A stretch of 64,000 nucleotides of DNA from Alphaproteobacteria bacterium. Lineage in GTDB: Bacteria > Pseudomonadota > Alphaproteobacteria > SPJN01. Each line of letters starts with the position of its first letter. Positions within the stretch are counted from its first letter, which is position 1. The position numbers and the translations under genes are program-made. The notes beneath the pieces are model-generated. The model did no database searches, was not told the DNA's origin, and saw only the letters and a program-made list of their open reading frames with translations. The DNA lies in assembly GCA_965227065.1 (NCBI GenBank), contig CBDDFN010000010.1, positions 9,098-73,097 on the forward strand, in the 5' to 3' direction. Positions 41,171 through 41,463 of this stretch are shown here, piece after piece.

Positions 41171-41387
41171 TGCCAACGGACAGACTGAAGGCGAAAACAA
41201 TTTTCGAAGAAAATTGGTGGAGCCCCCGCACGAAGGTCGAACCCGGTCGAACCTTGTGCCAACGGACAAACCGAAGGTGAAAACAATTTTCGAAGAAAAT
41301 TGGTGGAGCCCCCCGCGCAAAGTTCGAACTCTGTCGAACTTTGTGCCAACGGACAAACCGAAGGCGAAAACAATTTTCGAAGAAAAT
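41171..41387 (-). repeat. Mirror-image tandem array (2 intact + 1 partial unit) of the same ~87-bp element as 28086-28344, abutting the second tRNA-Ala
   Basis: The + strand reads TGGTGGAGCCCCCCGCGCAAAGTTCGAACTCTGTCGAACTTTGTGCCAACGGACAAACCGAAGGCGAAAACAATTTTCGAAGAAAAT, which is the reverse complement of unit 1 at 28086 with only a few mismatches. Confidence 0.85.
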
Positions 41388-41463
41388 TGGTGGAGCCGAG
41401 GGGAGTCGAACCCCTGACCTCTACAATGCCATTGTAGCGCTCTCCCAACTGAGCTACGGCCCC
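41388..41463 (-). tRNA. tRNA-Ala (anticodon GGC), CCA encoded
   Basis: The reverse complement is GGGGCCGTAGCTCAGTTGGGAGAGCGCTACAATGGCATTGTAGAGGTCAGGGGTTCGACTCCCCTCGGCTCCACCA, identical to the 28010 tRNA except in the anticodon arm. Confidence 0.9.

Follow-up and report, generated by a model that had tools for sequence, protein, structure and literature searches.

The array of short repeats that follows tRNA-Ala(GGC) in this alphaproteobacterial DNA poses the question of how a repeated unit comes to be stacked behind a tRNA gene, why the same array recurs in mirror image behind a second tRNA gene, and what became of the DNA enclosed between the two. Here, the window denotes the whole 64,000-nucleotide stretch that was analyzed. 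The reading favored, which is held with about even confidence, is that the locus forms one border of a lineage-specific recombination hot spot between convergent tRNA-Ala genes with identical 3' halves. The units would be decayed att-bounded scars, and the arrays would later have been homogenized and the segment between them flipped.

The tRNA-Ala Borders and Their Arrays

Exactly two tRNA genes were found in the window by ARAGORN and Rfam, both tRNA-Ala and convergent. Each border consists of one tRNA gene and three units of ~87 nt, about 335 nt in total. The features of the border under study, followed by those of its partner, are listed below.

41388..41463, minus strand: tRNA-Ala(GGC) (ARAGORN; Rfam tRNA, 65.4 bits; alignment)
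41301..41387, minus strand: unit m1, 87 nt, variant 'a' (covariance model, 105.3 bits; 96.6% identical to u1)
41315-41346, plus-strand positions: hairpin B of m1, palindromic, 13-6-13
41301-41310: copy of the tRNA 3' end that closes m1, GGCTCCACCA
41214..41300, minus strand: unit m2, 87 nt, variant 'b' (covariance model, 99.2 bits; 90.9% identical to u2)
41128..41213, minus strand: unit m3, the third, decayed (direct-repeat family copy at 69%; covariance model, 38.5 bits)
28010..28085, plus strand: tRNA-Ala(CGC) of the partner border (ARAGORN, Rfam)
28086-28173, plus strand: unit u1, variant 'a' (alignment, covariance model)
28174-28260, plus strand: unit u2, variant 'b' (alignment, covariance model)
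28261..28344, plus strand: unit u3, divergent, ending in GGGGCTCCACCA (covariance model, 57.4 bits)

The original prediction placed a mirror copy of the partner array behind tRNA-Ala(GGC) at 41463..41388. This array was recovered, and the unit quoted in the prediction corresponds exactly to 41301-41387. Its description as two intact units and a 5' partial copy requires one amendment. Units m1 and m2 are indeed intact, the latter carrying its hairpin in a slipped register and its terminal GGCTCCACCA at 41215-41224. The supposed partial copy is m3. A covariance model, R1, built from nine units (three genomes) covered 41128-41214 end to end (38.5 bits, E about 4e-7), and the third minus-strand copy is therefore complete but decayed. 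Its first 44 nt (41170-41213) comprise an intact trailer A, the distal half is degenerate, and the tRNA-end copy has decayed to GCCACCCCA. The end of m3 lies 14 nt from the asparagine-synthase stop codon. At the two ends of the segment, 14 and 36 nt separate the ends of the boundary genes from the last tRNA-end copy of the adjacent array. Tandem Repeats Finder reported a period of 87 with 2.6 copies at 41170-41397 and a period of 88 with 2.1 copies at 28076-28260.

The tRNA 3' end, GGCTCCACCA, occurred 7 times in the window (0.13 expected), and the 27-mer TTCTTCGAAAATTGTTTTCGCCTTCGG occurred 5 times at ≤3 mismatches, compared with 0 in 100 shuffles. Given these controls, the repeats are not attributable to chance. 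GGCTCCACCA or a near copy of it recurs three times after each tRNA-Ala gene, which is the direct-repeat pattern of a tRNA-targeted element.

Organization of a Unit

The base immediately after the tRNA CCA is the first of each unit, and the last 10-12 nt of the unit repeat the tRNA 3' end. All nine intact units in three genomes share this register, starting at CCA/A and ending in GG(G)CTCCACCA. From left to right, a unit comprises an AT-rich trailer A (ATTTTCTTCGAAAATTG...), a palindromic hairpin B and an element X, which is a G-run plus GGCTCCACCA. In variant 'a', hairpin B has the 13-6-13 arrangement GCACAAAGTTCGA CAGAGT TCGAACTTTGCGC. Only a sharply delimited block of 10 nt is identical to the tRNA. 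Immediately before it, the units share conserved sequence that is not of tRNA type, only the T-loop-like GTTCGA recalling a tRNA there. Every unit is thus bounded by the same core, a tRNA end plus 22-40 nt of trailer, with no genes inside; these cores are candidate att sites.

Similarity between the Two Borders

The two borders were predicted to form an inverted repeat of ~300 bp with high identity. Global alignment in register of the tRNA and two units matched 235 of 252 positions (93.3%), and an inverted-repeat pair of 171 nt at 92% was detected between 28007-28177 and 41296-41466. The high identity was thus upheld, with the qualification that the highly similar in-register part spans 251 nt of a mirrored structure that extends to ~335 nt with the third units. 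The last 33 nt of tRNA-Ala(GGC) and tRNA-Ala(CGC) are identical. Similarity is lost upstream of the tRNAs, where the 60 nt compared are unrelated (53%), in contrast to the 93.3% observed within the borders.

Comparison of individual units across the borders gave identities of 96.6% for u1-m1 and 90.9% for u2-m2, whereas neighbors inside one array were 88-90% identical. The order of the variants, a then b, is the same on both borders of the window. Given that cross-border pairs are closer than array neighbors and that the a-b order is shared, the whole array was copied between the borders rather than grown separately on each.

Inversions through homologous recombination between inverted repeats are familiar from rRNA operons, insertion sequence copies and duplicated tRNA genes, and RecA-dependent exchange needs roughly 25-30 nt of identity. 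The longest exact tracts common to both arms are 65 and 47 nt. The long identity expected of a segment invertible by homologous recombination is therefore present in these inverted arms, and the arrays represent, as predicted, a plausible substrate for such recombination.

The Borders in Related Genomes

Relatives were recovered with three protein anchors (AroA, AsnB and a 184-aa protein), which identified two lineages only. The first comprises L014, L015 and L037 from JGI sample 3300029624, and the second comprises L016, L017, L011 and L034-36 from ENA samples. All three lineages, that of the window included, are metagenome assemblies, and three lineages constrain covariation and the polarity of events weakly.

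Both related lineages keep the convergent tRNA-Ala(CGC)/tRNA-Ala(GGC) pair between the same flanking genes, namely an arylsulfotransferase cluster on the left and, on the right, the gene for a FYDLN-domain protein followed by aroA, cmk and rpsA. The tRNAs are 13.3 kb apart in the window, 4.3 kb in L014 and 1.6 kb in L016. By blastn, collinearity of the flanks with those of L014 and L016 extends precisely to the tRNA 3' ends. This collinearity, together with the differing content between the tRNAs, supports assignment of the region as a hot spot.

In L014, a 200-nt unit is found on both borders, 94-95% identical between sides (the corresponding figures in the window are 87 nt and 93%). The left part of this unit differs from that of the window units, and the right part contains the same hairpin plus GGGGCTCCACCA. 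On the CGC side of L014, the 200-nt unit is followed by a second unit of window type. The 200-nt unit (4965-5164 and 9049-9248) can be resolved on both borders into a unit of ~95 nt and an insertion of ~105 nt, the latter having hairpins of its own (e.g. CTTCGGGTGGCACGCCATCCGAAG) and an internal repeat of CGCTCTTC.

The GGC border of L016 consists of the tRNA, trailer, a 44-nt hairpin part, a tRNA-end copy and the trailer again, amounting to a single 79-nt unit. The CGC border of the same genome is bare, with the tRNA and a 22-nt trailer. The two sides share only the tRNA tail and the first 22 nt of the trailer, and the pair has the appearance of one occupied and one vacant site sharing a core.

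Across the three genomes, 0-3 units are present per border, and the unit type also varies. Unit u3 of the window is nearer to the unit type of L014 and L016 than to the u1/u2 type, and the subtypes are ordered II, II, I in the window and I, II in L014. Where full units occupy both sides (window and L014), the same version is found on both, whereas orthologous borders differ in version between genomes. Such sameness within genomes and difference between them points to concerted evolution of the two sides. Taken with the a-b order, the unit versions in the window and L014 support the view that the borders evolve in concert within a genome, and they bear out the prediction of gene conversion or duplication between the borders.

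In more distant relatives (AroA 64-67% identical), tRNA-Ala(GGC) is located beside aroA and the same genes without units, and no convergent tRNA-Ala(CGC) was found within the 7-8 kb fetched on that side. In one of these, L030, the tRNA is followed by an ordinary terminator. Given the absence of units from the distant relatives, the feature is lineage-specific, and the distribution of the unit family seems limited to a small clade of uncultured alphaproteobacteria.

Folding of the Units and Comparison with Known RNAs

No Rfam family matched the units, even in permissive mode; only the two tRNAs passed the gathering score. A unit is not a degenerate whole tRNA gene, as no match to the tRNA model was obtained and the likeness is confined to GTTCGA and the 3' end. 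A permuted (two-piece) tmRNA was likewise rejected. The best match scored 26.6 bits against a threshold of 47, covered 67 of 213 model positions and rested on the T-arm of the tRNA itself; it spans 28058-28296, with its 5' half supplied by u3. ARAGORN identified no tmRNA in the window. Arrays of this kind can be mistaken for tRNA fragments or tmRNA-like genes. The units were also rejected as terminators since neither array contains a terminator-like site, and no canonical terminator follows either tRNA.

Folding energies of the units relative to shuffled sequences gave z-scores of 0.0 to -2.6, which are mostly unremarkable. The consensus structure is weak, at -3.5 kcal/mol for all units and -9.3 kcal/mol for type I, and compensatory change was observed in 4 of 14 hairpin pairs. 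Unit u3 folded better than all 200 of its shuffles (z -2.6). Its GGGGCC (28281-28286) can pair with GGCUCC, an arrangement equal to tRNA-Ala acceptor pairs 1-6 including G3:U70, and ACCA comes next.

These data bear on an explanation that was judged improbable, in which the units are functional RNA. They would be co-transcribed with tRNA-Ala and cut at each CCA into hairpin RNAs with a tRNA-like, minihelix-like ACCA tail, or would serve as transcription barriers between the convergent tRNAs. In u3 and in the type I units of L016 and of L014 (plus-side copy), the G-run can pair with CUCC to form a helix that leaves ACCA single-stranded (the L014 minus-side copy folds differently), and u3 reproduces the acceptor pairs of tRNA-Ala. 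The compensatory changes in the hairpin are in keeping with this explanation, as is the lack of a canonical terminator after either tRNA, whereas L030 has one. The weak consensus structure, the ordinary z-scores and the lack of an Rfam family argue the other way. In addition, the units decay freely, as seen in m3, in the L014 unit L014_c with GCCG for ACCA and in L016 with ATCA, and a range of 0-3 copies among close relatives speaks against any function that is indispensable.

The Segment between the Arrays

The DNA between the arrays contains the following features.

28345..41127: inter-array segment, 12.8 kb (Pfam; blastn and tblastn synteny; protein comparisons)
28380-30533: three genes, including that of a 190-aa membrane protein (28380-28952) without a counterpart in relatives
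29008-30474: genes of a 184-aa HD-type protein and a 293-aa membrane protein, common to all three inter-tRNA regions
30586-34521: a pair of neighboring SAM-dependent methyltransferases, a BCCT (betaine/carnitine/choline) transporter and a divergent MarR regulator
34566-41113: relocated block of ~6.5 kb with an M20/M28 peptidase, a small ORF, an SSF transporter, a small ORF, an OTC-like gene and asparagine synthase

The 190-aa ORF adjoining the array encodes a predicted membrane protein with no Pfam match. The 184-aa and 293-aa proteins are 74-83% identical to those of the relatives, and theirs are the only genes common to all three inter-tRNA regions. The prediction had raised the possibility that isolates carry the segment in the opposite orientation. 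Consistent with this, 29008-30474 is inverted in the window relative to both L014 and L016 while the flanks are collinear, although the comparison is between different lineages in short-read metagenome assemblies, and the assembly process may orient DNA flanked by inverted repeats arbitrarily. With this qualification, the data support a model of homogenized borders around an invertible segment.

Production of the copy number or orientation by the metagenome assembler was considered highly unlikely. Independent short-read contigs do stop exactly at the inverted tRNA ends (L036, 1620 bp, which covers just the 1.6-kb interior; L015; L017), so the assembly graph is ambiguous there. By contrast, the arrays carry side-specific substitutions, the same architecture is present in three lineages from independent samples, and no frameshifts were seen in the flank genes when these were compared with L014. 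More generally, short-read assemblies break at mirrored arrays of this type, and the orientation given for the enclosed genes cannot be relied upon.

The methyltransferase, BCCT and MarR genes (30586-34521) have no counterpart in the related loci fetched, and their G+C content is slightly lower (0.52-0.55). This gene set appears to resemble glycine-betaine synthesis and uptake loci.

The block at 34566-41113 occupies three different chromosomal contexts (the window, L011 5392-12025 and L037 5483-12028) at a core-like identity of 79-83%; over 34566-41100, it is 82-83% identical to the blocks of L011 and L037, as are the core flanks to theirs. Given this core-like divergence and the other contexts, the block has been vertically inherited and relocated and is not foreign. 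Comparison with intact orthologues of L011 revealed one frameshift in the peptidase gene (34584-35862) and two in the OTC-like carbamoyltransferase gene (37997-39066), and both are probably pseudogenes. Of the L014 flank genes, 18 have a match in the window, and each of these was covered in a single reading frame. Frameshifts inside the segment and none in these flank genes point to decay of the genes inside the hot spot.

L037 likewise has the peptidase in two pieces (181 + 248 aa). In that genome, a convergent tRNA-Met(CAT) gene (12041-12117) has its 3' end 12 nt away from the AsnB end of the block, whereas in the window the AsnB end is 14 nt from the array. The spacer after the CCA of the L037 tRNA-Met (AATCCTTCCCGA) resembles the start of trailer A of L016 (AATTCCTTCGAA).

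The term island, used for the segment in the original prediction, is appropriate insofar as the DNA is bounded by an inverted repeat of tRNA plus array, but it does not extend to the content. No mobility gene was found in the segment, its G+C content (0.52-0.62) is like that of the flanks, and it includes the vertically inherited 6.5-kb block. A classical foreign island was rejected on the same grounds, namely no integrase, no compositional shift and a vertically inherited block. The foreign cargo of a tRNA-targeted element was not observed either, in that successive direct repeats enclose ~75 nt and the 12.8 kb is bounded by inverted repeats. The segment is thus a recombination hot spot and not a discrete mobile island. 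A site of gene exchange and rearrangement that contains methyltransferase and solute-transporter genes and a relocated asparagine-synthase block is pinpointed in an uncultured alphaproteobacterial lineage.

Searches for Integrases, Intact Elements and Further Copies

Fifty ORFs, taken to be the likely genes of the 64-kb window, included no recombinase or mobility gene by Pfam analysis, and no integrase was listed in the gene tables of the related loci. No recombinase was found beside the arrays as the Hin/Gin/Fim-type invertase of a site-specific switch. Units beyond the tRNA-Ala genes were absent from the ~64 kb window and from ~200 kb of related loci.

Sequence collections were also searched, the collection pattern scans being limited to exact patterns. 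In IMG/VR, no match was obtained to the junction pattern or to the pattern of hairpin plus tRNA end. When three tRNA-Ala ends at spacings of 65-95 nt were sought there as a generic pattern, 9 matches were obtained, all of which were rejected as glycine-rich coding repeats without a tRNA. Two units gave no blastn match to plasmids and phages. The 19-mer TTCTTCGAAAATTGTTTTC gave single chance matches only, in unrelated AT-rich genomes, among species-representative genomes, and the junction of tRNA end and trailer, CCACCAAWTTYCTTCGAAAATTG, gave three chance matches without a tRNA in JGI metagenomes. Exact look-ups of the AsnB and FYDLN proteins of the window and of the 100%-identical AroA match returned no record.

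A miniature non-autonomous element of ~75 nt (MITE- or PATE-like, or mini integrative), inserted in trans after the tRNA-Ala CCA and duplicating or carrying the tRNA end, was thought very unlikely. The uniform size, exact target register, tandem insertion beside its own CCA-bearing end and subterminal hairpin, which lies 10-14 nt from the unit end, are the features that such an element would display, and units are present at two different tRNA-Ala genes. On the other hand, terminal inverted repeats are lacking in the units, the hairpins of the left and right ends show no relationship, a transposase or integrase was not detected, and neither the window nor the related loci contain copies away from tRNA-Ala genes. 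Assignment of the unit as a MITE or PATE in the strict sense was rejected because it has no terminal inverted repeats and no dispersed copies in the window and 14 related loci.

Origin of the Units

An att-scar origin of the units is the most likely explanation. According to this model, site-specific integration would have occurred repeatedly at the tRNA-Ala 3' end and left the units behind as decayed att-bounded remnants, each laid out as attL, a short left end (A), a right-end hairpin (B) and attR, like miniature scars of cis-mobilizable elements (CIMEs) accreted in tandem. Both tRNA-Ala genes would have been colonized, which would follow from their offering the same target. Copy number may then have been altered by unequal crossing-over, and homologous recombination or gene conversion between the inverted arrays could have kept the borders alike and flipped the segment.

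The exact CCA register, the sharp 10-nt tRNA block behind conserved non-tRNA sequence, the empty and filled borders of L016 and the mixed subtype orders all match the remnants of site-specific integration at a tRNA 3' end. The subtype orders, II, II, I and I, II, are also hard to obtain by slippage of a single unit. Mobile-element integration is a common source of tRNA-gene fragments (PMC9897764), and decay to CIMEs with tandem accretion at att sites is an established route (PMC5704250). Several observations weigh against such scars. The 64-kb window and the loci of the relatives yielded neither an integrase nor another recombinase, and the searches of sequence collections gave no intact element with the unit. 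At 79-87 nt, of which ~45 nt separates the repeated cores, the units lie far below the size of all CIMEs described, and their uniform size looks more like that of a defined module or minisatellite than that of random deletion remnants. The inter-array DNA is not compositionally foreign, and its 6.5-kb block is vertically inherited and relocated. Finally, the comparison covers three lineages of metagenome assemblies, and tandem copy number and orientation may be assembly-dependent.

A local origin without any mobile element is possible, if doubtful. Here, the last 10 nt of the tRNA, the trailer and the hairpin would have been duplicated in tandem by slippage or unequal crossing-over, expanded as a minisatellite and transferred to the other tRNA-Ala by gene conversion. 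Such a process would yield head-to-tail arrays of uniform period, and the a-b order on both sides amounts to whole-array copying between the borders. The same explanation accommodates both the lack of an integrase or intact element and the confinement of the units to these arrays within the ~64 kb window and ~200 kb of related loci. Slippage leaves unexplained, however, why the unit boundary lies exactly at the tRNA end in three genomes, why two subtypes with different left parts but the same tRNA-end copy occur in differing orders, and why one border of L016 has the appearance of an empty site with bare tRNA and trailer.

There is also an outside chance that the unit is a self-contained module rather than a scar. 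It could be a miniature element, inserted in trans after the CCA of tRNA-Ala genes, that builds expandable att arrays around a flippable segment, akin to an integrase-less, integron-like landing pad in which chromosomal and foreign genes would be captured and reoriented. Alternatively, it could be cut from the tRNA-Ala precursor as CCA-tailed hairpin RNAs that mimic the acceptor stem, given that u3 has the alanine identity pair G3:U70. If the units were active attachment sites or processed RNAs, they would represent an unusually compact example of either.

Comparison with Known Systems

The anatomy expected of an att-scar origin has precedents. On present evidence, the locus is a variant of known tRNA-linked integration scars, tandem accretion and repeat-mediated inversion. 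The same anatomy has been described for the tandem ssrA islands of Dehalococcoides (PMC3146451). In both cases, several copies of the last 10-20 nt of the gene are found downstream, a conserved motif that does not align with the gene precedes each copy, and the region is the most variable in otherwise syntenic genomes. The repeats of Dehalococcoides are kilobases apart, with cargo genes and integrase modules, whereas those described here are 79-200 nt apart with no genes and no integrase, and the present arrays, unlike those of Dehalococcoides, form mirror images at a convergent pair of tRNA genes. The locus illustrates how tRNA genes that have a 3' end in common can jointly serve as the borders of a hot spot.

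CIMEs are characterized, in the account of PMC5704250 that draws on Pavlovic 2004 and Bellanger 2011, as att-flanked remnants without integration and transfer genes. The tandem pile-up at the 3' end of the target gene is shared with CIMEs, which can serve as landing sites for further elements. By contrast, the CIMEs so described range from hundreds of bp to tens of kb and have been mobilized, whereas the present units are ~87 nt. A similar comparison applies to the partial tRNA genes of attR sites (PMC9897764). These are also fragments of a tRNA 3' end downstream of the complete gene, but the copy in the present arrays is 10-12 nt, occurs three times at short regular spacing and lies inside a conserved repeat unit.

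With repeat-mediated inversions, the locus shares arms of 250-335 nt, exact tracts well above 25-30 nt, homogenization of the arms and the opposite orientation in relatives. The repeats are much shorter than the rRNA operons or insertion sequence copies that mediate inversions elsewhere, and the opposite orientation is known here from different lineages only.

Other Features of the Window

Short tandem repeats of a different kind were also present in the window. Repeats of 39 and 27 nt at 41657-41761 are located in the FYDLN_acid gene (41619-42008, minus strand), in which they encode an acidic, Asp/Glu-rich tail. Two 15-nt tandem arrays, at 10294-10368 and 15595-15674, comprise 4.4 and 5.3 copies, respectively, with 82-84% matches. 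The first of these is inside a DUF4167 gene and the second inside an ORF without a Pfam match. Farther along the window, a gene of the MbnB/TglH/ChrH family (DUF692 type, 54800-55747) adjoins a DUF2063 gene (53995-54807), a pairing (53995-55747) known from peptide-modification loci.
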